Of a DNA stretch of 64,000 nucleotides, positions 1,553 through 52,445 are shown piece after piece. Where the stretch lies: contig JBBILW010000001.1 in NCBI GenBank assembly GCA_037444725.1, forward strand, positions 5,056 to 69,055, written 5' to 3'. How positions within the stretch are numbered: position 1 is the stretch's first letter; every line of letters starts with the position of its first letter. Position numbers and translations under genes: made by a program. Origin of the DNA: Candidatus Jorgensenbacteria bacterium. Lineage in GTDB: Bacteria; Patescibacteriota; Minisyncoccia; UBA6257; GWB1-50-10. The notes under the pieces were generated by a model. That model made no database searches and had not been told where the DNA came from. It was given only the letters and a program-made list of their open reading frames with translations.

Positions 1553-2017
1553 TTAGTCGGATTTCACCTTCACTTTCTTTGCGCGCTGACGATTCAACTT
1601 CGGCATCCTGATAGTCAACACTCCATTCTTTACCGTCGCCGTGGACTTTTCCGGATCAACTTCAGCGGGGAGAATGACCGAACGTGAGAACCTTCCCCAA
1701 AAACATTCCTGATAGAAATAATCCTTGTCCGCAATCTGCTCCACCTTCTCGCGCTGACCCTTGATGGTGACGGACTCGTTCGTGATGTGGATGTCGAGTT
1801 CATCCGGCGTTACGCCCGCAACCGTCGACTGCACGATGATGTCATCACCCTCCTGGTACACATCCACCGTAAGCCGTCCTTCCGTTTCGTCGTCGTCGAT
1901 TTCGGTCACCTCCTCATCGCGGCGCGATTTCGGTTCTTTTTCCACGGTCACTTTCGTCGGCTCCGATTTTACTTTTGCGAGCTCTACAAAAATGTCGTTG
2001 TGTTCGTTGTTCTCCAT
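1553..2017 (-). CDS. Hsp20/alpha-crystallin family small heat shock protein
   Basis: Alpha-crystallin domain (VDVYQEGDDIIVQ...GVLTIRMPK) with an acidic N-terminus. Confidence 0.85.
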   Translation of the reverse strand: MENNEHNDIFVELAKVKSEPTKVTVEKEPKSRRDEEVTEIDDDETEGRLTVDVYQEGDDIIVQSTVAGVTPDELDIHITNESVTIKGQREKVEQIADKDYFYQECFWGRFSRSVILPAEVDPEKSTATVKNGVLTIRMPKLNRQRAKKVKVKSD

Positions 2018-2026
2018 ACAGTCACA

Positions 2027-2731
2027 TTATATCACACCCTCCTCCTTCTCGCGTCTGATTTTTTCAAAGTCATTTAATACAAAGAAAGTGACGCTTACAA
2101 GGAATAAACTCGGCACGAGAAGATTGGTGTCCTGCATCACGTAGACGAGATAATTGAAAATGCCGTGCACGATCGATGCAATCACAAGTCCGATTATTAT
2201 GAAGCGCCACTCCTCTTTCTTCACAATGCCATGCGCCCAGTAGTAACCGATGAGCGCCGACGCGAGCGTATGAAGGAGCGTTGCGCCGATAAGACGGAGC
2301 AGCAGCGCCTGGCCTGCGCCCGCGATTTCGTGAAGACCTGAGACGCCGAAGAATGAACTCAACACAAAAATATTTTCTATCGTCGCAAACCCGAGACCCG
2401 CGACCACCATGTAAATCATTCCATCAATCGGCTCGTCAAAATCCGGAAGCCAGCGCACTGAAGCATATGCGCCCCAAAACTTGAGCGCCTCTTCGATGAC
2501 CGAGTAGAGAAACATAGCGACGAAAAACATTCCGGGAATTCCCGAAATTTCTTTTTCGAGAATCAACTGTACGAGGAGCGCGGGTACACTCATTATGGCG
2601 CCGTAGATGAACGTCTTGATGATGAGACTCGCGGGCTCACCGTGGTCATCTTCCCGCAAAAAGAATGCGAGCCAGATGAGCGCGGGGAGAAACGCGAGTG
2701 CGACCGTCGCGATGATAGAGAGTGCTACCAT
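2027..2731 (-). CDS. PrsW-family intramembrane metalloprotease
   Basis: Polytopic membrane protein carrying EExxK (EEALK) and HxxxN (HGIFN) motifs. Confidence 0.5.
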   Translation of the reverse strand: MVALSIIATVALAFLPALIWLAFFLREDDHGEPASLIIKTFIYGAIMSVPALLVQLILEKEISGIPGMFFVAMFLYSVIEEALKFWGAYASVRWLPDFDEPIDGMIYMVVAGLGFATIENIFVLSSFFGVSGLHEIAGAGQALLLRLIGATLLHTLASALIGYYWAHGIVKKEEWRFIIIGLVIASIVHGIFNYLVYVMQDTNLLVPSLFLVSVTFFVLNDFEKIRREKEEGVI

Positions 2732-4878
2732 TGTTCGATGAGCAACAACGATTGTTTATGTTTCGGTAATTTTTGGAAAATATATTCCGTAAGAAACGGC
2801 ATGAAAGGATGCAACACTTTCAATGACTCGAAGAGTACATGCATGAGTACTTCGCGCGTGTGCGGTGCCGCATCGCTCGCGAGCTGACCCTTCGCCGCCT
2901 CGAGATACACATCACAAAACGAGTGCCAGAAAAAGTCATAAAATTCGCGGAGCGCTTTTGCGAATTCGAAGTGCTCGATATCGTTCGCGACACTCGCTTT
3001 AATTTTTTGGAGCTCGCCCATTATTTTTTTGTCGGCATCGGTTCCTAGAGACGCGTCAACATTCTTCGCGGGGAATGTCGCATCCTCTCCAATGGAACCA
3101 AGCACGAACTTTGCCGCATTCCAAATTTTGTTCGTGAATTTTCTGCCACCCACTACCGCAGTTTCATCCCAACGAATATCCTGTCCTGTCGCCTGCCAGA
3201 CGACTGCGAAGCGCGCCACGTCCGCACCGTACTGCTCAATGTATTTCAGAGGGTCAATGCCGGTACCCAAACTTTTCGACATGCGCTTCCCCTCTTTCGT
3301 CATGATGGTGCCGTGAATGAGCACGTTCGTAAACGGCACTTTCCCCATGAATTCGATTCCGGAATATATCATACGCGCAACCCAGAGATTCAAAATGTCG
3401 CGCGCGGTGATTAACGTGTGACCGGGATAATATTTTTTCTTATCGGATTCCGAAAGTCCCGCAAACGGCCAGAGCGCGGACGAGAACCAAGTGTCCAACA
3501 CATCCGTTGCCTGTTCCATTTCACACGTGCCACAGAGCGGACATTTCGCCGGCTTCTCTTTTGTCACGACAAAATTTTTCTCATCGTCTTTTTTGTTCTT
3601 GCAGAAATATACCGGAATCTGATGCCCCCACCAGATTTGGCGCGAAACGGTCCAGTCGCGGATGTTTGAAAGCCAATCGGAATAGGTCTTCTCAAAACGC
3701 TCCGGATGAATGGCAACTTTTTTCGAGCTCACCGCTTCAAGCGCCTTCGCCGCCAATTCCTTCATTGAAAGGAACCACTGCGCGGACGGCGTCGGTTCGA
3801 TTGATTGACCGCAGCGGTAGCAGACCGAGACGCGGTGCGCGTACGGTTCCACTTTCACGAGTCGCCCCTGCTTTTCCAATTCTTCAACAATCTTCACGCG
3901 TGCTTCGGCAGCCTTCATTCCCTCGTAGACCCCCGCTTCCTTCGTCATCCTGCCGCGGCCATCAATCACCACCACCATAGGAAGTTTGTGGCGCTCGCCT
4001 ATTTCAAAATCGAGCACGTCGTGTGCGGGAGTCACCTTCACCATACCCGTGCCGAATGTCGAATCAATCGCTTCGTCGGCAACGATGGGAATCTCGCGGC
4101 CCACAATCGGCACCGTTACTTCCGTACCTATCAACTTTTCGTATCGCTCATCATGCGGATTCACCGCGATTGCCGTGTCGCCAAGCAGCGTCTCCGGGCG
4201 CGTCGTCGCGACCGTCACTGCATCCGAATATTTGATATGCCACAAACTTGTTTCTTCATCCTTATATTCAAGTTCGAGCTCAGAGAGACTCGTCGCGCAG
4301 CGCGCGCACCAATTTACCGTACGATATCCGCGATAGAGCCAACCGCGTTCATAATAATGAACAAATGCCGCCACAACATCTTTTGCGTATGCGGGGTCCA
4401 TCGTGAAGCGCGTACGTGACCAGTCGGCAGAGCAACCGAGCCGGCGCAACTGCTCCAGAATGAGATTGCCGTACTGCGCTTTCCACTCCCACACTTTCTC
4501 AATAAATTTTTCTCGGCCGATTTCAAAACGGCTCACGTTCTGCTTGCGGAGCTCCTTCTCTACCACATACTGCGTCGCGATGCCCGCATGATCGGTGCCC
4601 GGAAGCCACAATGTTTTTTTTCCGCGCATACGCTGATAGCGGACAGAAATATCCTGGAACGAATTGTCGAGCGCGTGCCCCATATGGAGCGAGCCCGTCA
4701 CGTTTGGCAACGGCATGTACACCACGTAGGGTTCCGCATCTTTTTCTACCGGCAAATTATCGGGATTGAAATATCCCGATTTCTCCCATGCCGCATAAAT
4801 CTCTTTTTCTACATCCTTCGGCTCATATGCACCACTCCCCAGGACGCTCTGTCTTTTCGCACTCTCGTTTTCGTTCAT
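2725..4878 (-). CDS. valS: valine--tRNA ligase (shortened form, 717 aa)
   Basis: HIGH motif (HMGHAL), KMSKS motif, WCARCATSL, and the CP1 editing domain TRPETLLGDTAIAVNP. Confidence 0.9.
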   Translation of the reverse strand: MNENESAKRQSVLGSGAYEPKDVEKEIYAAWEKSGYFNPDNLPVEKDAEPYVVYMPLPNVTGSLHMGHALDNSFQDISVRYQRMRGKKTLWLPGTDHAGIATQYVVEKELRKQNVSRFEIGREKFIEKVWEWKAQYGNLILEQLRRLGCSADWSRTRFTMDPAYAKDVVAAFVHYYERGWLYRGYRTVNWCARCATSLSELELEYKDEETSLWHIKYSDAVTVATTRPETLLGDTAIAVNPHDERYEKLIGTEVTVPIVGREIPIVADEAIDSTFGTGMVKVTPAHDVLDFEIGERHKLPMVVVIDGRGRMTKEAGVYEGMKAAEARVKIVEELEKQGRLVKVEPYAHRVSVCYRCGQSIEPTPSAQWFLSMKELAAKALEAVSSKKVAIHPERFEKTYSDWLSNIRDWTVSRQIWWGHQIPVYFCKNKKDDEKNFVVTKEKPAKCPLCGTCEMEQATDVLDTWFSSALWPFAGLSESDKKKYYPGHTLITARDILNLWVARMIYSGIEFMGKVPFTNVLIHGTIMTKEGKRMSKSLGTGIDPLKYIEQYGADVARFAVVWQATGQDIRWDETAVVGGRKFTNKIWNAAKFVLGSIGEDATFPAKNVDASLGTDADKKIMGELQKIKASVANDIEHFEFAKALREFYDFFWHSFCDVYLEAAKGQLASDAAPHTREVLMHVLFESLKVLHPFMPFLTEYIFQKLPKHKQSLLLIEQW

Positions 4879-5318: not shown

Positions 5319-5699
5319 CTAACTTACATGCGAAACATTTATATAATGGCGGACCTGGAATACACTCTTTTCTTCCTTAATGGCCAACACGTCGAGGCGC
5401 CAGCCCATGCGCTCATTTATAAGGTGTGGGTTATCATTTGCGTACTGCTCGGCGATGCGGCTGAACTTCACTAGCTTCGCGCGGCTCATCTGATCTTCAG
5501 GAAGCAGTTCCGACACTCCCCTGTTTTGCATTGTTTTTACCTCGACAAAGACGAGCGTCCTATCCGGAGCCCGCGCCACTATATCCAACTCACCCCAGCG
5601 TTCCCGATAATTGCGCTCTATTATCTTGTATCCCTTTTCCACAAGATACCCACAGGCGTGAGTTTCGCCTCGTGCGCCTAATTCCATTCGCTCTGTCAT
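5319..5699 (-). CDS. YraN/UPF0102-family endonuclease
   Basis: GELDIVAR...LVFVEVKT PD-(D/E)xK core typical of the YraN family. Confidence 0.7.
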   Translation of the reverse strand: MTERMELGARGETHACGYLVEKGYKIIERNYRERWGELDIVARAPDRTLVFVEVKTMQNRGVSELLPEDQMSRAKLVKFSRIAEQYANDNPHLINERMGWRLDVLAIKEEKSVFQVRHYINVSHVS

Positions 5700-5892: not shown

Positions 5893-6172
5893 ATGTTTCA
5901 TCCTAAACACTCTCATTGTCCGAAATGCAAACGTGTAGGATTCATCGCGCTACCAGCTTGTCACAGCAATATCTCAGTCATATCGATATATTTCTATACA
6001 TAATGTTTCATCCTAAACATTTTTTTAGCCATATTTTTCAAAAGTGTAGGATTCATCGCGCTACCAGCTTGTCTGCATTTTTGTAGCAAAAATATGGAAG
6101 TGTAGGATTCATGCGGTTATCAGGTTTTCCTGCTTTTCCTTGTTTTCTTAGTTTTCTTTGTTTTCCTTGTTA
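5893..6172. repeat. Intergenic direct-repeat array of about 110 bp composite units, followed by a CT-rich microsatellite
   Basis: AATGTTTCATCCTAAACA occurs at 5893 and 6003. GTGTAGGATTCATCGCGCTACCAGCTTGTC occurs at 5934 and 6045, with a degenerate third copy at 6101. A (c)ttgttttcc tract with 5 repeats spans 6128-6172. Confidence 0.6.
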
Positions 6173-6174
6173 AT

Positions 6175-6202
6175 CAAAAACCCCGCCTGATCGGCGGGGG
6201 AG
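6175..6202 (-). terminator. rho-independent terminator of the metallophosphoesterase gene
   Basis: ccccgcc-tgatc-ggcgggg hairpin followed by a T-run on the minus strand. Confidence 0.55.
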
Positions 6203-6211
6203 TGACTCACG

Positions 6212-6895
6212 CTATTCCTCGGGATTCACTTTGATACCCTCATCACCCAGCGTTATGTACGAAGAAGGGACGTCCGTCCAACATCCGCTGTTGTAATACT
6301 CCACACTTCCGAAATGCTCAGCAATCGCCCTGTGCGTGTGTCCACAGAATACGACATCATAGTGCTCGAGGGCTCCATGCCGCGATGCGCCCTTCGCGAC
6401 TCTCTGGGAGTTCCTCATCCATGCCTTGCTCGCACGCTTCAGGAAACGGCTGATAAACTGGCGCTCGGTATCGATGCGCTGGATGAAGAGATACACATTG
6501 CCCGCAAGCATGCTCAAGAACTCATTTCTCACGAGGAAACGGTCAAACTGATGGCCATGCAATGCAAGGCAGCGCTTCTCCTTCCATATAAAGGAGTGCT
6601 CGCGTTGCACATCGACGCCGATAAGCCTTGAGAGGATGTTCGCTGCACCATCATGATTACCCGCAATCCAAACTACCTCCTCGGGACGCTTCGGGTGCGA
6701 TAACTCCCTAAAAAAGGAGAGAAGCGCCCAATCGTCATGATCGAGACGCTGGAAATTGAGATCATCAAAGATGTCGCCGTTTAAGATAAGCTTCTTGAAC
6801 TCCATCGACTTCAATCGATGCAGCAGCTGTTTTGAGCGGCAGGGCCTTGAGCCCAAGTGAATATCGGAAACGATAACTACGTCGTATTGAGGCAT
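6212..6895 (-). CDS. calcineurin-like metallophosphoesterase (LpxH/YaeI-like)
   Basis: All five phosphoesterase motifs are present: SDIHLG, NGDIFD, GNHD, HGHQFD and GHTHR. Confidence 0.75.
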   Translation of the reverse strand: MPQYDVVIVSDIHLGSRPCRSKQLLHRLKSMEFKKLILNGDIFDDLNFQRLDHDDWALLSFFRELSHPKRPEEVVWIAGNHDGAANILSRLIGVDVQREHSFIWKEKRCLALHGHQFDRFLVRNEFLSMLAGNVYLFIQRIDTERQFISRFLKRASKAWMRNSQRVAKGASRHGALEHYDVVFCGHTHRAIAEHFGSVEYYNSGCWTDVPSSYITLGDEGIKVNPEE

Positions 6896-11012: not shown

Positions 11013-11849
11013 TTAGGAATTCAATGCGTAGAAGTTTTTGAATAGCTGCGCGACAAGTATGGGACCCGTGCCACCCGGCGTCGGCGTAAAGCTAAGCGAG
11101 TCGGGCGCGCCTTTTGCTTCAAAATCGCCCGCAATGCGGCCGCGCTCCGCGCTATAACCAAAATCTACGACGAGCGCATCGTGCTTTACCATCGACGCCT
11201 TCACAAGTCCCGCGCTTCCCACGCCGATGATAACGATATCCATGTGCTTTAACTCCGATAAATCGCTCCCTTTATCGAGATAATGGATTTCGGAGCTCTT
11301 GCCGAGAAGCCACGTCCCGATGGGTTTTCCCACAAGTGAGCCCAAACCCACGACGCCGATTTTCTTGTGCTCGATAAACCAACCCGCAATTGAGGCGTCG
11401 TCGCCGCGTGCGTGAATGAGCTTTCTGTCGAGTACCGCAAGAAGCGTGCCGACCGAGGGAGGCAGAATTTTTCCTCGTCCCGTATAGAATGCGCCGAGTG
11501 CGCGCTCGCTCAATACGTCAACATCAACCTCGCGAGGAATCGAGTTTAGAAGATACTGCGCATTGAGATGCGCGGGAAGCGGCAGTTGGATAATAATGCC
11601 GCCGCATGCCTTTTTCTCCGCAATCGAGGCAATCTCTTTCCTCAAGTCGTCTTCACGCACGCGCTCGGAGTATGCGTGCAGTTCAAACGGTATACCGAGG
11701 CGCTTTGCGATTTTTTCTTTCTGCTTTATGAAGCTGAGAGACGCGGGCTCCTTGCCCACGAGAATCGCGTGGAGCGTCTTCTTCATCTTTTTCCCCGATT
11801 CGAGTTCCGCCAATATTTCTTCCGCAATCTGTTTGCCGTCGATTATCAT
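11013..11849 (-). CDS. folD: bifunctional methylene-THF dehydrogenase/methenyl-THF cyclohydrolase
   Basis: MIIDGKQIAEEIL start and PGGTGP motif, with FolD-like similarity over the full length. The track ORF is trimmed to the conserved Met. Confidence 0.85.
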   Translation of the reverse strand: MIIDGKQIAEEILAELESGKKMKKTLHAILVGKEPASLSFIKQKEKIAKRLGIPFELHAYSERVREDDLRKEIASIAEKKACGGIIIQLPLPAHLNAQYLLNSIPREVDVDVLSERALGAFYTGRGKILPPSVGTLLAVLDRKLIHARGDDASIAGWFIEHKKIGVVGLGSLVGKPIGTWLLGKSSEIHYLDKGSDLSELKHMDIVIIGVGSAGLVKASMVKHDALVVDFGYSAERGRIAGDFEAKGAPDSLSFTPTPGGTGPILVAQLFKNFYALNS

Positions 11850-14220: not shown

Positions 14221-14252
14221 CAAAACCCCGCCAAGAGGCGGGGGGTTTTGTG
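14221..14252. terminator. bidirectional rho-independent terminator immediately 3' of tRNA-Val
   Basis: ccccgcc-aaga-ggcgggg hairpin flanked by A- and T-runs. Confidence 0.55.
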
Positions 14253-14324
14253 TGGGCGCTGAGGGTGTCGAACCCCCGACCTACTCGGTGTAAACGAGTC
14301 GCTCTACCGCTGAGCTAAGCGCCC
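14253..14324 (-). tRNA. tRNA-Val (anticodon TAC)
   Basis: Manual cloverleaf fold: acceptor stem GGGCGCT/AGCGCCC, anticodon loop TTTACAC, T-loop TTCGACA. Length is 72 nt with no encoded CCA. Confidence 0.85.
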
Positions 14325-14344
14325 TTTCTGACTACGATAGTGTA

Positions 14345-14380
14345 TACAAAAAAGCGGGACCAATCAACTGGTCCCGCTTT
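14345..14380 (-). terminator. rho-independent terminator of the adenosine deaminase gene
   Basis: agcgggacc...ggtcccgct hairpin followed by a TTTTTTG run on the minus strand. Confidence 0.5.
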
Positions 14381-14388
14381 GAGATTAA

Positions 14389-15414
14389 TTAGAACGCGAA
14401 TGCGCCCCTGAAGACGTTCTTCTCGAGAAGGCGCGCCTCCGTTTCCGTGAAATTGAACACCGCATCGCATCGCTCGATGACCTCCGGCATCGCCGGCAGG
14501 AAGAAGTCATCATCCGGGTTCAACGTGTAGCAGAGCCCGGCATCGAGAAGCTCAGGAATCCTCAACTCCTCGAGCGTCCCGATCGCACCCGTCGTAAGAT
14601 TCGAGAGGGGACAGCCTGCGACGCGGATGTGATTGTCCACCATGTAGCTCACCGTGTCGGGGTAGTCCACGAGCGGAATCGCGTGGCCCACGCCGTCGCA
14701 CTTCAGCACGTGGATAGCGGTGTGGATGTTGCGCATGAGGCGCGCACGATAGGTCTCGCGCGGCTCTTTCGCAACCCACTCGCCCGCGTGACAGTCCCGC
14801 CGCACCTTGCTGCCGAATGTGAGCTTGTACGCCTCGTAATGCTTTTCCGGCGGATGCGCCGCCTCATCGCACACGAGATTCAGCGCCGCTTCTCCGTCGA
14901 ACTCGAGCGCGATGCGCGCGATATCTTTTCCCGTCTCCACGTCCGCCTCGCGGCCGATGCAGATGTGCGGGAACACGCGGATATCGAGATTGAACTCGGT
15001 CGACTGCGCTGCTTCCACGAAGGCATGCGCGGCCTCGCGCATAGTGAGACCCTGCTTCGTGTGATACTGCGGCGCAAGATACGCCTCGACATACCGGTAT
15101 CCTTCAGCGCTGCGCGTGCGCGCATATTCGCGCACCGCATGGCGAATCGCCTCCTTCTTCTGAAGTGCGTTCGTGATGAGCGAAAACTTCTTCACGAGAT
15201 CAACGTGCACATTGCCGAAGAACGTTGCGAGCCTCTCCGGACTGCCTGCATTCTCCGCAACCTCGTACGGCAACGGCAACCCCGAGAGCTCGTAGAGCGT
15301 CGGGAGCGCTTTTGCGACTGCCATGCTTCCATCCACGTGGTCATGGTGCAATCCGCGAATAAACGGTTTCATGCGCGCCTTCCTTTCCCTGTTGGTTGGT
15401 AAGCTTCTCCTCAA
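14389..15414 (-). CDS. add: adenosine/adenine deaminase-family amidohydrolase
   Basis: HHDHVDGS metal-binding start and NPDDD motifs. Confidence 0.75.
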   Translation of the reverse strand: MRRSLPTNRERKARMKPFIRGLHHDHVDGSMAVAKALPTLYELSGLPLPYEVAENAGSPERLATFFGNVHVDLVKKFSLITNALQKKEAIRHAVREYARTRSAEGYRYVEAYLAPQYHTKQGLTMREAAHAFVEAAQSTEFNLDIRVFPHICIGREADVETGKDIARIALEFDGEAALNLVCDEAAHPPEKHYEAYKLTFGSKVRRDCHAGEWVAKEPRETYRARLMRNIHTAIHVLKCDGVGHAIPLVDYPDTVSYMVDNHIRVAGCPLSNLTTGAIGTLEELRIPELLDAGLCYTLNPDDDFFLPAMPEVIERCDAVFNFTETEARLLEKNVFRGAFAF

Positions 15415-15475
15415 GTTCTACCACCTCCTCACGTGACACGCAAACAAAAAAGCGCTCTTGGCGCCTTTTTCTTTG

Positions 15476-15547
15476 TCGGTCCGGCAGGACTCGAACCTGC
15501 AACCGGGCGTGTATAAGACGCCTGCTCTGCCATTGAGCTACGGACCG
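15476..15547 (-). tRNA. tRNA-Ile (anticodon TAT)
   Basis: Manual cloverleaf fold: acceptor stem CGGTCCG/CGGACCG, anticodon stem GGCGT/ACGCC, anticodon loop CTTATAC, T-loop TTCGAGT. Confidence 0.75.
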
Positions 15548-23665: not shown

Positions 23666-24088
23666 ATGATGTTTCGCTTACTCGCTGGTATTACTCTTGC
23701 CCTCGTCCTCTTCGTCGCCGTTGCTCCGCATGCGCTTGCGGCAAGTATTTGGACGGGAACCTCGTGCGTGGGCACTAGCGGAGGCCCCGACAAGCCGTGC
23801 TCCTTCTGTGACGCGCTTATTGTAGGAAGAAATATTATTACGTTTCTTACCGAGATTGCCGTGTCTATCACCACGCTCATGATAGTAGTCGGCGCAATAC
23901 AATTGGTGATTGCGGGCGGCGACCCCGGAAAAATCTCTGACGCAAAAAGAACGATGGGGCGCGGTCTCACCGGACTTCTCGTCGTAATGTCCGCATGGAC
24001 ACTTATGAACGCGCTTCTCATATTCATCGCACGCGGCAGCGCCTCCGATCCTTCAGGTTGGAAGTGGAATGAGATACAATGTCAGTAA
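23666..24088 (+). CDS. VirB2/TrbC-like T4SS pilin paralogue 1
   Basis: Signal peptide followed by two hydrophobic helices separated by a short loop (GGDPGKISDAKRTM). Confidence 0.45.
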   Translation: MMFRLLAGITLALVLFVAVAPHALAASIWTGTSCVGTSGGPDKPCSFCDALIVGRNIITFLTEIAVSITTLMIVVGAIQLVIAGGDPGKISDAKRTMGRGLTGLLVVMSAWTLMNALLIFIARGSASDPSGWKWNEIQCQ

Positions 24089-24423
24089 CCATTATGAAAA
24101 CGTTCTCTAAGGCACTTTTTCTCACGCTCGTCCTTACCGCCGCGGCAGCACACGCGCAAACATCCGTAGCGCTCCCCAATCCGCTCGGGGGCGTAAGCAC
24201 AATCGGCGACCTCCTCAATAAAATTATCGACGCGCTTATTCTTTTCGCATCGCCCGTAGTAGTAGTCATCGTCATGTATGCGGGATATTTGTTTCTTTCC
24301 GCGCGCGACGAACCGGAAAAGATTACCCAGGCCAGAAACACCATTCTCTATGCGATGCTCGGGTATGGTATAATACTAATCGCAAAGGGAATCGGGCTTA
24401 TTATTCAAAGCTTCTTTTCCTAG
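24079..24423 (+). CDS. VirB2/TrbC-like T4SS pilin paralogue 2
   Basis: Same architecture as paralogue 1. The start overlaps the preceding gene by 10 nt. Confidence 0.45.
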   Translation: MSVTIMKTFSKALFLTLVLTAAAAHAQTSVALPNPLGGVSTIGDLLNKIIDALILFASPVVVVIVMYAGYLFLSARDEPEKITQARNTILYAMLGYGIILIAKGIGLIIQSFFS

Positions 24424-24470
24424 AAAAGGTCGAGTTGTACATTGCAGACCATTCAAACTTATTACTGAAC

Positions 24471-24818
24471 ATGAAAACACTTGTAAAATACGCATCATTT
24501 GCAGCAGCAATCGCTCCCGTTCTCGCATTCGCGCAGGCAGCACCTGGCGACGTGACCGGAGGAACACAGGGACGCATCACATCACTTACCGGAGTCTGGA
24601 CTATTGTGCAGACGGCAGTTAATTGGCTCGTCGCCATTTTCTTCCTCTATGCAACGATTCAGTTCCTTTTGGCAGGCTGGGAGTATCTTAGCTCCAAGGG
24701 TGATGAATCGAAGGTGACGGAAGTGAGGAATCGCCTTCTCTATGGAGTCATCGGCGTCGCGGTAGGACTTCTTGCATTCTCAGTCCCCGCTATCGTGAGG
24801 ACATTCGTGGGTGCATAA
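24471..24818 (+). CDS. VirB2/TrbC-like T4SS pilin paralogue 3
   Basis: Same architecture again. Start trimmed to MKTLVKYASF. Confidence 0.45.
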   Translation: MKTLVKYASFAAAIAPVLAFAQAAPGDVTGGTQGRITSLTGVWTIVQTAVNWLVAIFFLYATIQFLLAGWEYLSSKGDESKVTEVRNRLLYGVIGVAVGLLAFSVPAIVRTFVGA

Positions 24819-24956
24819 TTACAACCGATACTACGTTACAAAGGCTCCTCTCTGCTTCACAGCAAGGGGAGTTTTTGATTCCCTTCTTCGCTAAAGCTAC
24901 GAAGGGCACGGTATTAGAAAAGTAGGAAAATTGGTGTATATTTATGGAAAGTATTT

Positions 24957-25039
24957 GCTCCCGTGGCGGAACTGGCATACGCGCAGCGCTTAGGACGCTG
25001 TCCCCAAAAGGGTTAGAGGTTCAAATCCTCTCGGGAGCA
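24957..25039 (+). tRNA. tRNA-Leu (anticodon TAG), type II with a long variable arm
   Basis: Manual cloverleaf fold: acceptor stem GCTCCCG/CGGGAGC, anticodon loop CTTAGGA, T-arm AGAGG-TTCAAAT-CCTCT. Length is 83 nt. Confidence 0.85.
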
Positions 25040-25044
25040 CAAAA

Positions 25045-25072
25045 TGACTCCACCGTTTAGGTGGAGTTTGTG
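25045..25072 (+). terminator. hairpin terminator after tRNA-Leu
   Basis: ctccacc-gttt-aggtggag followed by TTTG. Confidence 0.5.
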
Positions 25073-25203
25073 CTCCGAGGATTTGAACGGGAAAGGGGTC
25101 GGGGAAACGGAAGTTTCCCCGTGGCGGAGCACACGAACCGCTGGGTTCGTGAGAGGCGAGCGATATGCGCGAGCCGACGTTCAATTACCTCTCGGGAGCA
25201 CAA
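25067..25203. repeat. scrambled tRNA-Leu fragments (pseudo-tRNA and att-like remnants)
   Basis: An inverted copy of the tRNA 3' end lies at 25067-25088, a direct copy of the 5' cccgtggcgga segment at 25118-25128, and a direct near-copy of the last 25 nt of the tRNA at 25179-25203. Confidence 0.5.
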
Positions 25204-25275
25204 ACGCACTAACAAATAACTAATCACTTACAACAAATAACGCAGAGCAGTCGCTCCCTCCATCGTTATAAGTGA

Positions 25276-26193
25276 TTAGTTATCAGTTTCTTTCCGTCTG
25301 CGAGCATGAAACGCCTCATGCACTTCGCGGAGCTCTTTATTCGTAAGGTGAGTATATACCTGTGTCGTCGCAATGTTTGCGTGGCCCAAGAGCTCCTGCA
25401 CCGAGCGGAGGTCTGCGCCGTTCACAAGCAAGTCGGTCGCGAACGAGTGCCGTAACTCATGCGGGTGCACATGCTTTGCGATGCCTGCCGCACGGGCGTA
25501 GTGATCAACAAGACGCTGAATGGTCCGCGGGATAATACGCTCCATCGGCTTGCCGCTTTTCGAAAGACTTATGAAAAGCGCCTCATCCGCATCAGTCCGT
25601 TTTTTTAAATAATCCTTGATTGCCGTGCGAGCACCGGCCGAGAGAAAGACAACGCGGATTTTCTCTCCCTTTCCACGCACGGAAAGCTCTCCGCGCTCAA
25701 GGTCCAAATATCTCGAGAGCGCGCAAATTTCGGAAACGCGGAGACCGGTCGAAAAGAGAACCTCGAGAATCGCGCGATCGCGGAGCGCGCGGAGCGAATC
25801 ACCCTTCGGTGCGGCAAGGAGCCGCACCAGTTCTTTATACTCAAGCACCTCGATGTCGCGTCGCGCGATTTTGGGAAGCTCGATGGTTTCCGGCGCAAGT
25901 GACTTCACGCCGCGCTTCACGAAATACTTTAAAAGATTACGAAGCGCGATGACGTAATAGCTCTGTGTAATCTTTTTCATGCCGCGCCGCGAGAGCGACA
26001 CGCGAAAACTTCTGACAACCGCGTCGGTAATATCGGTAGGGGATTTCACTCCCGTTTCTTTCACGAACAAGGCAAGATAGCGTTCGTAATTCTCCCGCGT
26101 TTTTAACGAGCGATTTTTTTCAATCTCAAGATAATCGAGGTACTCCTTACAAAGGTCTTTTACATTCGCCATTATCTCCATTGTATCACGCAT
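25276..26193 (-). CDS. tyrosine site-specific recombinase (XerC/XerD/integrase family)
   Basis: Catalytic R...HxxR...Y constellation (LRHSFATDLL, HANIATTQVYTHL). The true start is uncertain and may lie anywhere from 26172 to 26322. Confidence 0.85.
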   Translation of the reverse strand: MRDTMEIMANVKDLCKEYLDYLEIEKNRSLKTRENYERYLALFVKETGVKSPTDITDAVVRSFRVSLSRRGMKKITQSYYVIALRNLLKYFVKRGVKSLAPETIELPKIARRDIEVLEYKELVRLLAAPKGDSLRALRDRAILEVLFSTGLRVSEICALSRYLDLERGELSVRGKGEKIRVVFLSAGARTAIKDYLKKRTDADEALFISLSKSGKPMERIIPRTIQRLVDHYARAAGIAKHVHPHELRHSFATDLLVNGADLRSVQELLGHANIATTQVYTHLTNKELREVHEAFHARRRKETDN

Positions 26194-26285
26194 ATATTGT
26201 GCGACAGATAATTGACCTGCATTTTGTGCGGGCGTAGAGTATGTACAGAACCTTTTAACCCGCAGGACCCCTATAAGGAGGGAAT

Positions 26286-26579
26286 ATGACACTCGAAAGA
26301 ACAAAGAGAGTACTCGCATCAAGCGAGGATGGAGACGGACAGAGCGTGGAGCTCATCGCGTATGGACCATACGAGAAGACGGTCACTTCGTCCACTGAAG
26401 GCGTGCCCGTGCGCATCAACGGCACGAAGCAGGTGATTCAGCTCCAGACCCGCTACCCCACGTGGGAATCGCTCTACGTCGTGAAGGTACGTGGTGAATC
26501 GGTCCTCAACACGTACGTTGCGCACATTGCCTGGGACAAGTTCAACAGCGCCATCGGCCTCGATCAGGTTGGCGCCTGA
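26286..26579 (+). CDS. hypothetical 97-aa protein
   Basis: High-GC ORF with a strong terminator downstream. No recognisable motif. Confidence 0.45.
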   Translation: MTLERTKRVLASSEDGDGQSVELIAYGPYEKTVTSSTEGVPVRINGTKQVIQLQTRYPTWESLYVVKVRGESVLNTYVAHIAWDKFNSAIGLDQVGA

Positions 26580-47801: not shown

Positions 47802-49196
47802 ATGAATAAAAAAACGCTGTTTGCTCTCGTGGTTGTCAGCCTCATCATCGTGCCTTCTATTATTCTCGCGGCTAGCGCTCCCGCGCCCCTGCGCTTCTCG
47901 CCACCTTACATAAGCGGCGTACCGGGGTTTGCCGGCACTTCACAGGCGCCCATCATGTCGGGTGGAGCAACCTCGATTCAGGATTATCTTATTCGCATTT
48001 ATCAGTTTGCTATCGGTATCTCAGGCGTAACCGCGGTCGGCATGATTGTGTGGGGCGCTATCAATATGTCGATTTATACAGGACGTATCGACCGATACGA
48101 GGAAGGTAAAACAATAATTTACCAGGCACTTTTTGGTCTTGCGCTTCTCTTTGGTTCATACCTCTTACTCAACACCATCAACCCGCAAATCACCACACTC
48201 ACCGAACCAACCGGAGGCGGAAAACAACTCGATGCAGTTACCACAACCACAGTAGCAAACCCAGGATCGAGCGCGTCGGGCTCATCGATATGCGGCGGCG
48301 GGCAACTTGCGAGCATACCGCAACTTCCCAACCTTTCATCCGCCACGCCGAGCGCAACTGGCTGCGAATATAGGCGCCTCCAACTCACGCAAGACCTCAC
48401 ATACTCCGCAAAGGGTATGTATAACCAAGACCTTAACTTGAAAAAAGGTGCCATTATATGGCTCTGGCCGTATTATGTTGGAGACACAGCATCAGCACGT
48501 TGTACTATCTACGCCTATAAAGACGCTCCCATTGAAGTGCCTAATTACGCTCCAGATGGCTCCGTTCAAGGACCTCCGACTCTTTCTTATCCCGCGACCC
48601 AACAAGTGTCGCTCAAGCTTGATGGTATGAGTAAATGCGGAAACGACCCCGCGACCCAGCAACCAGGCGCAACCTGCACCGATTGCGCAGCAACCGGAGG
48701 TTCGGTTGATGTAAGCGGTATTAACACAAGCAATCTTGATGGCAACGGATCATGCTCGCCATCAATAAACACCTCACCCGCGGGCATTATTTCCGATATA
48801 AAAAATGGCAATCTTCCCTACATTTGTTACCCGGGCTGCAACTCGACAACTGCGCCTTGCACGAGAAGCGGAGCAACACTTTCCGCAAATACCGTAAACA
48901 CGATTATCAATCTCCAAAATTCCGGAATGTCCTTTACAGTAACAAGTCTCACGGGCGGTTCACACAGCGCGGTAGGTGATGTGCACTATCAAGGAAAGGC
49001 ACTTGATGTGGTGTTTCAGCCGCAAGATGCCACCACGTGGAATAAGGCATTGAAATTACTACAAGGCATGAGCACTGTTTCACAGGCGGCATGTGAATTC
49101 ATTGGAGGTAGTCCGCCCAACTTTGATCAGAGTTCGTGTAATGGCTTATTCGCATCAGGCACCACAAATCGGCACATCCACGTCACCACGAAATAA
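47802..49196 (+). CDS. pilin-fold (VirB2-like) N-terminal domain fused to an extracellular domain of about 320 aa that contains many Cys
   Basis: Signal peptide followed by two hydrophobic helices (IQDYLIRIYQFAIGISGVTAVGMIVWGAI...ALFGLALLFGSYLLLNTINP), then a long C-terminal domain with many Cys. Start trimmed to MNKKT. Confidence 0.45.
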   Translation: MNKKTLFALVVVSLIIVPSIILAASAPAPLRFSPPYISGVPGFAGTSQAPIMSGGATSIQDYLIRIYQFAIGISGVTAVGMIVWGAINMSIYTGRIDRYEEGKTIIYQALFGLALLFGSYLLLNTINPQITTLTEPTGGGKQLDAVTTTTVANPGSSASGSSICGGGQLASIPQLPNLSSATPSATGCEYRRLQLTQDLTYSAKGMYNQDLNLKKGAIIWLWPYYVGDTASARCTIYAYKDAPIEVPNYAPDGSVQGPPTLSYPATQQVSLKLDGMSKCGNDPATQQPGATCTDCAATGGSVDVSGINTSNLDGNGSCSPSINTSPAGIISDIKNGNLPYICYPGCNSTTAPCTRSGATLSANTVNTIINLQNSGMSFTVTSLTGGSHSAVGDVHYQGKALDVVFQPQDATTWNKALKLLQGMSTVSQAACEFIGGSPPNFDQSSCNGLFASGTTNRHIHVTTK

Positions 49197-49226
49197 AAAA
49201 CACCCCTTGCGGGGTGTTTTTTTAAT
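49194..49226. terminator. bidirectional rho-independent terminator ending the envelope cluster and the jag gene
   Basis: acacccc-ttgc-ggggtgt flanked by an A-run and a T-run. Confidence 0.6.
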
Positions 49227-49664
49227 TTATGAAACGAATTTGATAACGACGTGACGGTCTTTTCCGGCTCCCGCGCTCTCGGTCTTGAGCTCCGGGTGCG
49301 TGGTGAGCTCCATGTGCACCAAGCGGCGCTCATAGCCGTTCATTGCCGGCAACGCCACTTCCTGCTTCGTAACCGAGGCTTTCTTTGCGGCGGCCTTCGC
49401 GAGCTCGGTAATAAGCCTCTCGCGCTCCTTGCGGTAATAGTTCAAATCCACCACGTGGGGGATAAGACCTTCTTTTTTGAGCATTAAGTTCACAATATGG
49501 TCGAGTGCGGGGAGAATGTTGATGACATTGTCCGAGACAAACCGGTCGTCGATGAGAATAATCACCTTCCTTCGTTCCTCGTCGAGCGCAACCTCCGCCT
49601 CGGGGAAGCCCATAAGGGTTATAAGCTGTTTTGTCTTCTCTACGATTGGATTTGCGGGGTTCAT
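49227..49664 (-). CDS. jag: Jag/KhpB-like R3H-domain RNA-binding protein
   Basis: C-terminal R3H domain (NGYERRLVHMELT). Conserved position downstream of yidC. Confidence 0.75.
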   Translation of the reverse strand: MNPANPIVEKTKQLITLMGFPEAEVALDEERRKVIILIDDRFVSDNVINILPALDHIVNLMLKKEGLIPHVVDLNYYRKERERLITELAKAAAKKASVTKQEVALPAMNGYERRLVHMELTTHPELKTESAGAGKDRHVVIKFVS

Positions 49665-49682
49665 AGTTCAACGAACAGTATA

Positions 49683-50399
49683 CTACTCATCTTTGAATTT
49701 TGGCAATTGTTTGTTGATGTAGAGCTGCTGCACCACCGAAAAGAGGCTTGAGACGAGCCAATAGAGACCAAGTGCCGAGGGGAGATTCACGAGCACGAAG
49801 AAGGTAAGCGCCGGACCCATAATCATCATCGTGTTCGTCATGGACGCCATAGGATTGTCCTTATCCGCGGATTTTGCCTTCATACCACCCATCATAAGCT
49901 TGCCCTGCAGGTACTGCATAGCAGCCGCCAAGACCGGCATAATATATCCTTTTGTTTTCAAATCAAGAATTCCAAGAAGCGTCGTGGTGGTAAACGCGGC
50001 TCCCGAGAGCTCGGTTGAGAGCACGCGGAAGAGGATAATGAACACCGGAAGCTGGAGGAGCAGCAATAAAATACCCGAAAAAGGATTGAGTTTGTACTTC
50101 TTATAGAGGTCGAGCATCTCTTTTGCTTGGCGCTCCTTATCATCCTTATGATCGAGCTGAATCTTCTTTATGTGCGGCTGGAGGTGCTGAGTAAGCGCCT
50201 GGTCTTTTGAGCTCTTATAAAAGATGGGGAAGAGGATGACGCGCACCGCAACGGTGAGTAAAATAACCGCGATTCCAAGGTCGTGGAACGCGATGGTGTT
50301 ATAGATATAGATGAGCAATTCCAATATCGGCTGATAGAGAAATGTATTAAAAAACCCGGACATGTGCTCTATTGTACGGGGTTTCCCACTATTCCGCAA
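49683..50399 (-). CDS. yidC: membrane protein insertase YidC (short form)
   Basis: FLYQPILELLIYIY...LLTVAVRVILFPI and five TM helices. Confidence 0.85.
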   Translation of the reverse strand: MRNSGKPRTIEHMSGFFNTFLYQPILELLIYIYNTIAFHDLGIAVILLTVAVRVILFPIFYKSSKDQALTQHLQPHIKKIQLDHKDDKERQAKEMLDLYKKYKLNPFSGILLLLLQLPVFIILFRVLSTELSGAAFTTTTLLGILDLKTKGYIMPVLAAAMQYLQGKLMMGGMKAKSADKDNPMASMTNTMMIMGPALTFFVLVNLPSALGLYWLVSSLFSVVQQLYINKQLPKFKDE

Positions 50400-50408
50400 T
50401 TCATGTTT

Positions 50409-50669
50409 TTAGCCCAGTTTTGCCTGAATTTCTTCCTGCAGCCCATGAAAACCCGCCTTCACCGCTCCCGCGCGGGCTATTATCGTCACTTCGTACGGTA
50501 ATTTCTCAAGAAGCGGGCGCACTATGGAGGAAATGCGACGTTTTACAAGGTTTCTCTCTACCGCTTTTTTAGAAACCGCCTTCCCGACCACAACAATAAG
50601 CGGCTTCTTCTGGAAGCCGTGTGGGTTTGTTCTTATTGTGAGTGTGCGCATGGGTGCTATGAGCGCCAT
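50409..50669 (-). CDS. rnpA: RNase P protein component
   Basis: KAVERNLVKRRI (the RNR-like motif). Conserved position between rpmH and yidC. Confidence 0.75.
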   Translation of the reverse strand: MALIAPMRTLTIRTNPHGFQKKPLIVVVGKAVSKKAVERNLVKRRISSIVRPLLEKLPYEVTIIARAGAVKAGFHGLQEEIQAKLG

Positions 50670-50683
50670 AATACTCGTTTTAT

Positions 50684-50818
50684 CTAGAGTGCGATGCGCT
50701 TGCGGCCCTTTTGTCTGCGGCGAGCCATTGCTGCGCGTCCTCCCGGCGTTCTGCTGCGCTTTAAAAAGCCGTGCGTGTTCCTGCGCTTCTTCTTTTTTGG
50801 TTGGTACGTGAAACTCAT
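50684..50818 (-). CDS. rpmH: 50S ribosomal protein L34
   Basis: [44 protein letters not shown]. Start trimmed. Confidence 0.85.
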
Positions 50819-50866
50819 AGTAATGAATCTTGGTGTTACATTAACACACCGTACGAAATAAAGCAA

Positions 50867-51062
50867 TTTTTGTCCGCCGTCATTCCGTAAAACGACTTAT
50901 CAACAGGTAATACACAATTAGAGCACATTCGCGAATTTCCAACAACGTTGAAAGTTTTATTATTACGTTTATGATTGGGTGATAGGTAAGGAGAAAAGTT
51001 TTCTGATTTGATTTTTTTCAGTCTTAATAAATAATTTTTTAAAATCGCGCCACACACGAAAT
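50867..51062. promoter_or_regulatory. AT-rich rpmH-dnaA divergent promoter region, possibly part of the origin
   Basis: About 200 bp of AT-rich non-coding DNA between divergent rpmH and dnaA. Confidence 0.4.
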
Positions 51063-52445
51063 ATGGAACATCAGGAACTTTGGAAAACAGTGCTTGGTGA
51101 GATAGAACTCCAGATTTCGCGACCAAATTTCCTTACGTGGTTCAAAAACAGCCAGTTAGTGGAGAAAAACGAGAAGGAGGGGGTGGCGCTTGTGGCATTA
51201 CCGAACAATTTCGCGAAGGAGTGGGTAAAAAATCGTTATCATAAGATTATTTTAGGTTCGTTACGCAACATCGACGGCTCAATTAAGTACGTAAACTACG
51301 TTGTGGTGAGTCACAACACTCCGCTTAAGCCCTCAAAGGTGGAGCGGAAGCAAAAAGCGCCGGAATTAACCGACGAAAAATCAAATCTTCCCATCACCGA
51401 TCTTCGTGTTGACTCAAAAACGAATCTCAATCCGAAATATATCTTTGATTCCTTCGTTGTCGGCTCCTCAAACGAGCTTGCATGCGCCGCCATCAACGCG
51501 GTTATCGACAATGTCGGGAAAAAATACAACCCGCTCTTTATTTATGGAGGAGTAGGTTTGGGAAAAACACACCTTCTCCAGGCAGCAGGGAATGCGGTGC
51601 ATCAAAAATATGAAGGGAAGGTGCGTGTGTTGTATGTAACCTCGGAAAAATTCATCAATGACGTTGTGTGGGCACTCCGCAACAAGCGCGCGGACGACAT
51701 GAAGAAAAAATACCGCGATGTGGATATGCTTATCATCGACGATATCCAATTCATCGGCGGCAAAGCGGCAACAGAGCTCGAATTCTTTTATACATTTAAC
51801 GCGCTCTACGAAAACAACAAGCAGATTATTATTTCATCCGATCGTCCGCCCGCAGCAATCCCCACACTCGAAGAAAGACTTCGTTCACGCTTTGAGGGGG
51901 GAATGATTGCGGATGTCGCGTATCCGGATTATGAAATGCGTTTGGCAATTTTAAAAACCAAAGCGCAGTCTCATAACGCAAATATCGACGAAAAAACCCT
52001 TGAATATATCGCGACGAAAGTCCAGAAGAACATCAGGGAAGTGGAGGGGGTGCTCAATAAGGTGTTGTTTTACCAACAGTATAAAAACAACCAAATAGAC
52101 CAGAAGAAACTTGATGAAATCATCAGTGAAACATCGCAGGTTTCACCGAAAAACATCACTCCCGCCGATATTATTAAGACCGTTGCTGAGTTTTATGAGA
52201 TATCCCAGCAGGAACTCACCGATAGAGGAAGGAAGCAGGAAATAGTGGAACCTCGGCAGGTAGTAATGTACCTCTTGAGAGAAATGTTGAAACTTTCGTA
52301 TCCGAATATCGGCGAACGCCTTGGAAAGCGGGATCATACTACCGTTATCCACGCATACGAGAAAATCTCAAAAGAGGTGCAATCGAATTCCGCGTTCAAC
52401 CAGAAAATACTCCTTATCAAAGAACGACTGTTTAAAAATTCTTAA
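51063..52445 (+). CDS. dnaA: chromosomal replication initiator DnaA
   Basis: AAA+ Walker A (GGVGLGKTHL) and a C-terminal DNA-binding domain. Confidence 0.95.
   Translation: MEHQELWKTVLGEIELQISRPNFLTWFKNSQLVEKNEKEGVALVALPNNFAKEWVKNRYHKIILGSLRNIDGSIKYVNYVVVSHNTPLKPSKVERKQKAPELTDEKSNLPITDLRVDSKTNLNPKYIFDSFVVGSSNELACAAINAVIDNVGKKYNPLFIYGGVGLGKTHLLQAAGNAVHQKYEGKVRVLYVTSEKFINDVVWALRNKRADDMKKKYRDVDMLIIDDIQFIGGKAATELEFFYTFNALYENNKQIIISSDRPPAAIPTLEERLRSRFEGGMIADVAYPDYEMRLAILKTKAQSHNANIDEKTLEYIATKVQKNIREVEGVLNKVLFYQQYKNNQIDQKKLDEIISETSQVSPKNITPADIIKTVAEFYEISQQELTDRGRKQEIVEPRQVVMYLLREMLKLSYPNIGERLGKRDHTTVIHAYEKISKEVQSNSAFNQKILLIKERLFKNS

Follow-up and report, generated by a model that had tools for sequence, protein, structure and literature searches.

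In a 64,000-nt stretch of the Candidatus Jorgensenbacteria contig JBBILW010000001.1 (assembly GCA_037444725.1, positions 5,056 to 69,055 of the forward strand; hereafter the window, with positions counted from its first letter), the region at nt 25041–25205 directly behind a tRNA-Leu(TAG) gene probably represents an integrated copy of a family of small, protein-less, multi-copy mobile elements of Paceibacteria-like bacteria of the candidate phyla radiation (CPR). A previous reading of the locus from its sequence alone (the sequence-only reading) had described the tRNA gene as followed by scrambled direct and inverted fragments of itself, next to a tyrosine recombinase gene, and had taken them for the scar of repeated integration and excision at a tRNA attachment site or for a decayed mini-element whose cargo had been lost. 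The observation of the tRNA repeats was confirmed and insertion had taken place at the tRNA, the repeat marking an insertion at the T-loop and 3′-end, but neither the scar or decay nor the role ascribed to the recombinase was upheld.

The region at nt 25066–25205 constituted one intact copy (about 140 nt) of a conserved element, the size of which ranged from about 120 to 250 nt across the family. Family members shared a layout in which the end of the host gene (X) was followed by an inverted copy of the beginning of X (A′), then by a core, and lastly by a displaced second gene end joined to the native flank (X2). The core comprised, in order, GGGGTC, hairpin H1, CCGTG(NN)GGA, hairpin H2 (..AACC-GNG-GGTT..), and hairpin H3, which was variable; GAC or GTGA followed. 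About 145 nt separated the two direct repeats of the window copy, and the recombinase gene, of the Xer type, lay outside them (Table 1).

Table 1. Features of the tRNA-Leu(TAG) region of the window
Feature	Position (nt)	Strand	Basis or remark
Promoter-like site of tRNA-Leu	24915..24942	+	TAGAAA, 16 nt, TATATT; sole promoter-like site within 24800-25400
tRNA-Leu(TAG), host gene	24957..25040	+	ARAGORN; Rfam RF00005, 54.7 bits
X, functional copy of the repeated segment (T-loop to tRNA 3′ end + 3 nt)	25019..25043	+	Repeat comparison
Spacer hairpin ACTCCACC-GTTTA-GGTGGAGT	25047..25067		Centre of the long X/A′ palindrome
A′, inverted copy of X	25066..25088	+	Pairs with X (long hairpin) or X2 (closing stem)
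Junction GGGAAA, then invariant GGGGTC	25089..25100	+	GGGGTCGG invariant in 115 copies
Hairpin H1, GGGGAAAC-GGAA-GTTTCCCC	25101..25120	+	Covariation
Conserved linker GTGGCGGA plus GCACA	25121..25133	+	CGTG..GGA invariant across the family
Hairpin H2, CGAACC-GCTG-GGTTCG	25134..25149	+	Pair counts across distinct copies
Hairpin H3, variable arm, followed by GAC at 25176-25178	25155..25175	+	Fold and copy comparison
X2, displaced second tRNA 3′ end with an extra base in the T-loop	25179..25205	+	Repeats; native flank after X2 in L012/L014
Xer-type tyrosine recombinase, 298 aa; neighbour, outside the element	25276..26172	-	Domains, family models, synteny

The host gene was a genuine tRNA gene, with a cloverleaf at nt 24957–25039 scoring 54.7 bits against a cut-off of 29 bits (Rfam RF00005). 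The pieces resembling it all lay within 165 nt downstream. At nt 25066–25088, the T-arm and the 3′ strand of the acceptor were copied in inverted orientation, with two exact arms, 12 nt (nt 25019–25030 versus nt 25077–25088) and 10 nt (nt 25034–25043 versus nt 25067–25076) in length, separated by a 3-nt deletion. An 11-nt exact direct match joined nt 24960–24970 to nt 25118–25128, and a direct copy of the tRNA 3′-end at nt 25179–25205 included a 17-nt exact core (nt 25027–25043 and nt 25188–25204). The three direct similarities were colinear with the tRNA, with offsets of 158, 160, and 161 nt. In dinucleotide shuffles (n = 2000) of the 232 nt downstream of the tRNA, the length of the 17-nt direct match was never reached (0/2000) and that of the 12-nt inverted match was reached 3 times (3/2000), while a direct match of at least 11 nt occurred in 0.3% of the shuffles. 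The three pieces were thus located where the sequence-only reading had placed them, and they held under a proper significance test. They were not scrambled, since they had a fixed order that recurred at more than 100 other loci, and the 11-nt piece CCCGTGGCGGA, previously regarded as a 5′ segment of the tRNA, was a conserved core motif formed by the end of H1 and the linker, also present in copies unrelated to tRNA-Leu such as those behind tRNA-Ile, gyrB-like genes, and others. No tRNA match was detected in nt 25041–25275 with Rfam at E ≤ 10 or with ARAGORN; read as a cloverleaf, nt 25115–25204 had an "anticodon arm" with a 4-nt loop and did not qualify as a tRNA.

Scanning of metagenome contigs with a 21-position pattern derived from the core revealed more than 120 loci, which is a lower bound; counts for the family given here and below are among the matches listed. 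Sixty-eight of the 125 copies were situated directly behind a tRNA gene, all 68 on the strand of the tRNA, with about 35 tRNA species serving as hosts. In these tRNA-type copies, X began in the T-loop and reached the end of the tRNA plus 0 to 13 nt, occasionally up to 48 nt, and across all copies the target repeat was 15 to 100 nt long. Other RNA hosts were tmRNA (L160; L numbers denote loci) and an intron-bearing tRNA (L111), whose group I intron was located at nt 11083–11320 of that locus (Rfam, 67 bits), inside a tRNA-like gene upstream of the element copy. Host genes that were occupied at the 3′-end of a coding region encoded gyrB-like proteins, gap, rplL, rpmG, an aminoacyl-tRNA synthetase, and membrane proteins, and in these the 18 to 100 nt up to the stop codon were repeated after the core. 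Three copies were found at the 5′-end of an oppositely oriented gene, dnaX in two cases (L114 and L149) and another gene in the third (L148), with the first 12 to 18 codons repeated. None of the more than 120 copies had cargo or an integrase, contrary to the suggestion of lost cargo.

Two sets of related loci were compared, 83 from Paceibacteria and 80 species-representative Xer loci. The element was present at 6 to 8 of the 83, and nhmmer found strong copies in the window, L014, L023, L045, L066, and L083. The same layout occurred behind tRNA-Leu genes of differing sequence in L008, L014, L045, and L066, each copy matching its own tRNA, and also behind tRNA-Ala (L023) and tRNA-Ile (L083); the inverted copy of the T-arm was located 30 to 60 nt, and the direct copy of the 3′-end 115 to 230 nt, downstream. 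A short core variant was observed at about nt 5480–5594 of L008. Several contigs carried two or three copies. In L123 and L191, X, spacer and A′ were repeated on both sides of the core, and in L096 (nt 1596–2200) three tRNA-Ala 3′-ends were separated by two inserts with different cores; these three loci show repeated use of one site and secondary rearrangements. The second insert of L096 had a different core (GGGGAGATTGAGAAC...CAGTGAGAT) in an unchanged architecture, and several cores may exist within one superfamily. Two near-identical copies 2.6 kb apart in L192 (nt 1900–4800) bracketed genes for an 80-aa GIY-YIG protein, a 200-aa protein, and a 388-aa M23-peptidase-like protein, an arrangement that could reflect either a composite element or duplication of a segment.

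The core pattern had no matches in viral contigs, and no matches were obtained by BLAST in GenBank phages. The covariance models of Rfam 15 at E ≤ 10 yielded only the tRNA, the best other model being LOOT with 19 bits (threshold, 46). The full-text literature searched contained no description of an element of this kind, which is absence of evidence rather than proof. We are highly confident of the descriptive statements on this family, which is widespread in CPR bacteria and apparently undescribed.

Alignment of 115 distinct cores was clean and displayed invariant blocks. Length variation of the arms and of H3 defeated a whole-element RNAalifold analysis, for which reason H1 was tested on a trimmed alignment and H2 was counted per sequence. 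H1 was paired in 95.1% of the cells compared with 79.3% in shuffles, and had 149 double-change cells versus 44, a value not reached in any of 500 shuffles; the signal was lost when the partner columns were slid. Pairs in H2 over the distinct copies comprised 1048 Watson-Crick, 77 G·U, and 6 A·C, and H1 had 17 G·U versus 6 A·C with loops that were mostly GNNA. A GCGAAGC mini-hairpin motif was present 21 times on the plus strand and was absent (0) from the other. The great excess of G·U over A·C indicates that the relevant strand is that of the tRNA, working as a single strand. A gene on the minus strand was rejected, as it would require the A·C mismatches to stand at 77 versus 6. These results show that the core is selected as a folded single strand with the same polarity as the host tRNA. 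The window copy alone was predicted to fold into a closed four-way junction (−70.6 kcal/mol, z = −6.3); with X included, a long X:A′ hairpin was predicted instead, with H1 to H3 persisting. As the only promoter-like site in the region is that of the tRNA and the spacer hairpin scored as an intrinsic terminator on the minus strand only, read-through from the tRNA is possible in the window.

Empty sites were found in close relatives. In L005 and L007, the tRNA of the window type abutted the Xer stop codon directly. In the pair L012 (empty) and L014 (filled), which share the same tRNA-Leu, L014 was longer by about 190 nt in the alignment, and the native flanking sequence downstream resumed from X2. 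Comparison of the locus in related genomes, as advised by the sequence-only reading, thus provided evidence of insertion. Of 53 copies, 47 had an A′ that was more complementary to X than to X2, 1 was an exception, and 5 were ties; median complementarity was 14 with X, 8 with X2, and 5 for shuffled controls, and the X:A′ stem had a median length of 17 bp. A closing stem between A′ and X2 as the main helix was rejected, since it was weaker than X:A′ in those 47 copies. In the copies that occupy orthologous sites of gap on three contigs and of dnaX on two, A′ matched the X of its own copy. In protein-gene hosts, the reading frame of X2 and its start or stop codon were usually preserved, and most of its differences from X were at synonymous sites, for example in L098 (WGYSCRLAEFAEFVGKKL versus WGYSCRLAEFCEYVGKKI, each ending at a stop) and likewise in L119, L106, L093, L150, L178, and L114. 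The frame being kept and the differences being mostly synonymous, X and X2 are taken to be alleles that diverged under selection in different lineages. These data show that the insert consists of a replacement gene end (X), a short spacer, A′, and the three-hairpin core, placed in the terminal part of a gene. By insertion in the gene end, the original end (X2) and the native flank are pushed downstream and the host gene stays intact. As judged from the sequence comparisons, the block X-spacer-A′-core has moved between lineages into a resident gene, with its junction precisely at the start of X2.

A mode of spread can be proposed with moderate confidence. The element would spread between genomes by being copied into a homologous gene end, with the junction set by the limit of homology between X and X2 and by the A′ complement; in this way each copy would carry its own target address. 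The template for copying could be donor DNA, in the course of recombination or repair, or an RNA produced by read-through from the host gene. One route would be strand invasion or annealing of a donor at X2 followed by synthesis through the core, on a DNA or RNA template. The folded core might serve as a handle for a trans-acting enzyme (a recombinase, nuclease or reverse transcriptase) encoded elsewhere, and fold-back copying of the target is one possible source of a new X and A′ on a change of host. Whether the active form is RNA or single-stranded DNA, and which enzyme acts on it, can be stated with low confidence only. More tentatively, the family may constitute a new class of self-addressed mobile element, that is, a protein-less structured RNA or single-stranded DNA with its specificity residing in the direct and inverted target copies and a spare end that repairs the gene, copied by a host or trans-acting enzyme into a gene end that is either homologous or newly captured.

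Several points weigh against a mobile element of this kind. Clustering of open reading frames (ORFs) of at least 90 aa over 120 loci gave only housekeeping families, so that no linked protein family and no mobilising enzyme was found, and GIY-YIG genes, a candidate for a linked enzyme, were present in just 9 of the 120 loci without a fixed position. The model leaves unexplained how X and A′ are newly acquired on a change of host gene, the double X-spacer-A′ arrangement of L123 and L191 is not predicted by a simple unit model, and spread at orthologous sites could be explained by passive homologous recombination without dedicated machinery. The G·U excess and GNNA loops fit RNA and single-stranded DNA alike. 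Obligatory read-through RNA is weakened by a terminator-like hairpin before the core in 23 of 63 tRNA-type copies (37%) and by the three copies that are antisense to the host gene.

The recombinase gene is convergent with the tRNA gene; it is its end, rather than its beginning as formerly stated at a distance of about 75 bp, that faces the repeats, with the stop codon (nt 25276–25278) 71 nt past the last of them. Translation probably starts at the ATG at nt 26172, preceded by a GGAG ribosome-binding site, and not at nt 26322. The predicted protein matched both PF02899 (SAM-like N-terminal) and PF00589 (Phage_integrase), possessed the motifs GLRVSE, HELRHSF, LLGH, and QVYTH, and passed the NCBIfam XerA model (225.1 against a cut-off of 220); the top NCBIfam matches were XerC (246) and XerD (243.5), both under their equivalog cut-offs. 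Homologues sharing 60% to 93% identity were encoded across Paceibacteria, Jorgensenbacteria, Harrisonbacteria and related groups. In 55 of the 80 species-representative loci, tRNA-Leu(TAG) converged on xer with or without the element, the spacer between them ranging from 5 to about 1900 nt, and the order gyrA, solute-binding protein, three type IV secretion system (T4SS)-pilin-like genes, tRNA-Leu(TAG), Xer, small ORF, rpsO, NYN, pnp was conserved in close relatives. Occupancy by the element at the 80 loci was 3/55 for tRNA-Leu(TAG) versus 2/29 for other tRNAs (Fisher p = 1.0), indicating that the element has no special tie to the Xer neighbourhood. The view that this protein is the integrase of the element was not supported, given its likeness to XerA/C/D, its conservation, its synteny regardless of the element, and the lack of enrichment. 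As for a comparison with chromosomal Xer proteins on the one hand and integrases of phages or integrative and conjugative elements on the other, the protein is XerC/XerD/XerA-like and syntenic, and this comes close to the refuting condition set by the sequence-only reading, a sole chromosomal dif-resolving Xer; no Xer paralogue occurred within the 64-kb window. The identity, synteny and lack of a paralogue in the window suggest the behaviour of a housekeeping Xer rather than of an island integrase; we infer that it is an ordinary chromosomal Xer, the chromosome-dimer resolvase, merely sharing a conserved neighbourhood with tRNA-Leu(TAG).

Other explanations of the family have to be weighed. 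It is unlikely that the copies are non-autonomous retroelements resembling short interspersed nuclear elements (SINEs), the core being a 3′ trailer of highly expressed genes copied by a trans-acting reverse transcriptase; on this view, a broken or nascent target strand would anneal to X2, used as the primer-binding site, and synthesis of cDNA across the core, A′ and X would then install the block. Co-orientation of the copies with the upstream tRNA (68/68) and with most protein genes, hosts that specify abundant RNAs (tRNA, tmRNA and ribosomal-protein genes), G·U far above A·C with GNRA-like loops, a target repeat varying from 15 to 100 nt, and the lack of a promoter-like site besides that of the tRNA within nt 24800–25400 of the window agree with this explanation. 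On the other hand, no reverse transcriptase was found in the flanks by ORF clustering of the 120 loci, no A-tail or other mark of reverse transcription was present, terminator-like hairpins stood upstream of the core in 37% of the tRNA-type copies, three copies were antisense to the host gene, and priming at RNA 3′-ends leaves the fixed T-loop start in tRNAs unexplained. Quite unlikely is a mechanism like that of integrative mobile elements exploiting Xer (IMEX), in which the plus strand folds, A′ and X rebuild a duplex target, much like the folded attP of CTX phage or an integron attC, and the resident Xer, annotated as a tyrosine recombinase/integron integrase, recombines the fold with the gene end. 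At the right end of the CTX prophage, a direct copy, an inverted copy, a spacer and a direct copy follow one another. The element has this same order, for which an Xer-dependent reading is kept alive at low probability; moreover, selection acts on a single strand (the GCGAAGC mini-hairpin being confined to the plus strand, 21 versus 0), Xer is universal in these genomes, and the T-arm of tRNA is a classic crossover site of tyrosine recombinases. Yet the protein-gene targets inspected had no obvious common sequence to which a recombinase could bind, the elements were not enriched beside Xer, the outer-end motifs of attC were absent, and no dif-like motif was noticed on inspection, no dedicated dif scan having been made.

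More doubtful still is a cis-acting RNA module of the host, residing in the 3′ trailer for end protection, processing or insulation and multiplied by duplication or recombination without being selfish. Such a module would account for the conserved structure, the constant position behind genes, and the X:A′ complementarity kept in divergent orthologous copies in gap and dnaX, but not for the sporadic presence among close relatives, for a displaced second gene end that serves no need, for an X2 resembling an allele from another lineage, or for copies antisense to the 5′-end of the host gene. The scar or cargo-less remnant of an integrase-bearing island using the adjacent recombinase, or its variant, a decayed tandem duplicate of tRNA-Leu, is highly improbable. 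A direct repeat of the tRNA 3′-end does adjoin a tyrosine recombinase gene, and nt 25115–25204 are colinear with the tRNA; nevertheless, the interior is a covarying three-hairpin core whose conservation extends over unrelated genes in more than 120 copies, the recombinase is encoded by a core gene that is syntenic with or without the element and is followed by the housekeeping genes rpsO and pnp, and nt 25115–25204 gave no tRNA score even at E ≤ 10.

The proposed mobile element shares features with several known systems. Like islands, prophages and tycheposons at tRNA and tmRNA genes and their derivatives that lack an integrase (cis-mobilizable elements, CIMEs), it inserts at the T-loop and 3′-end, supplies a new 3′-end, and leaves the old end as a repeat of the attL/attR kind; direct repeats of a tRNA 3′-end do flank the insert. 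It fails as a member of the island class because no integrase or cargo lies between the repeats. In contrast to islands and CIMEs, it is about 150 nt in size, its interior is not what a deletion left behind but a conserved, covarying fold, ends of protein genes without shared sequence serve as targets as well, and it has an extra inverted copy of the target. A CIME or decayed att remnant was rejected, the interior being conserved and covarying in 115 distinct copies. Strand specificity, inverted repeats that fold the site, and an Xer- or IntI-like recombinase in the host are shared with CTX attP(+)/XerCD (IMEX) and integron attC/IntI, but the element targets many unrelated gene ends instead of dif or attI, and its conserved part is the loop (core) and not the stem. 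In integron attC sites, an imperfect palindrome is bounded on the outside by R′′ (RYYYAAC) and R′ (GTTRRRY); on inspection, GAAC/GTTC occurred at the inner end of the A′/X2 stem in tRNA-type copies and was absent in protein-gene copies, and attC was rejected. As with SINEs and R2, the element is short and non-autonomous, would ride on host transcription, has a variable target duplication, and prefers abundant RNA genes; unlike them, it is bacterial, lacks a known reverse transcriptase partner, an A-tail and an internal promoter, and its duplication always reaches and restores the gene end.

Miniature inverted-repeat transposable elements (MITEs), REP doublets forming hairpins (REPINs) and Correia elements are likewise small, multi-copy, protein-less, hairpin-forming, and mostly located just outside coding regions. 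A MITE was rejected, as the inverted arm copies the local target, no terminal inverted repeats of its own are present, and the repeat is gene-specific and 15 to 100 nt long rather than a short target-site duplication of constant length. A conserved structured scaffold beside a segment that matches target or flanking DNA is also known from the omega RNA of IS200/IS605 TnpB and from the bridge RNA of IS110, but the element and its surroundings contained no TnpB, IscB or IS110 recombinase, similarity in sequence or to Rfam models was not detected, and the target segments of the element pair with each other. Also rejected were a tmRNA, permuted tmRNA or tRNA-like gene (none by ARAGORN and Rfam, and no local T-stem); known ribozymes and small RNAs (only chance matches with Rfam at E ≤ 10); a self-splicing intron with X2 as the 3′ exon, since the T-loop of X2 was altered in most tRNA-type copies (GTGA for GTTC), with an extra base in the window, and the spliced product would not be a tRNA; a template and variable repeat pair of a diversity-generating retroelement, the differences between X and X2 not being adenine-specific; and IS91-like GTTC targeting, the protein-gene junctions having neither GTTC nor CTTG.

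Further features were noted around the locus. A 24-nt inverted repeat (88% complementary, 30-nt loop) at nt 25211–25288 spanned the Xer stop codon and resembled a local bidirectional terminator; it was absent from other element copies, and the direct repeat AACAAATAAC occurred twice, at nt 25211 and 25232. Just upstream of tRNA-Leu, three tandem small genes with a T4SS-pilin/TrbC-VirB2 domain (nt 23666–24818) were syntenic in relatives. In L003 (nt 5900–6800; Xer 90% identical), a 243-aa ORF with no Pfam match was situated between the same tRNA-Leu and Xer, with near-identical hairpins on its two sides (ttggcacatct..agatgtgccaa); this is another, distinct mobile insertion at that position. L002, L004 and L006 (Xer 89% to 93% identical) had a tRNA-Leu(TAG) of quite different sequence with the acceptor GGACGGG, and in L004 a remnant of 12 nt (GCTCCCGCGGCG) from the 5′-end of the window-type tRNA survived about 75 nt upstream of the resident tRNA-Leu, followed by hairpins; in these loci the tRNA gene itself is replaced. 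A tRNA-Val(TAC) and tRNA-Ile(TAT) pair was located at nt 14252–15547 of the window, 10 kb from Xer, and a tRNA-Val/tRNA-Ile pair replaced tRNA-Leu directly downstream of Xer in L013, L017, L022, and L028. The cumulative GC skew reached a minimum near 50 kb, with GC content down to 0.42–0.45 at about nt 48000–52000, which may mark the origin or the terminus of replication or else DNA of foreign descent.

The genomes of CPR bacteria (Patescibacteria) are very small, and classical transposons are believed to be scarce in them. The conserved structured element is present at many of their essential genes, including those for tRNAs, tmRNA, gap, rplL, rpmG, gyrB-like proteins, dnaX, and an aminoacyl-tRNA synthetase, and its copies create tRNA-fragment repeats of an att-like appearance that genome annotators will misread as island scars. 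If mobile as proposed, the element shows how a parasite enters essential genes without killing them and marks frequent exchange of gene ends between diverged lineages, and its fold of about 100 nt gives a handle for finding the protein partner (a recombinase, nuclease or reverse transcriptase), which could be a programmable insertion system. Were it a self-addressed element as outlined above, it would amount to a bacterial parallel to guide-carrying or SINE-like elements, and an abundant one throughout the CPR.

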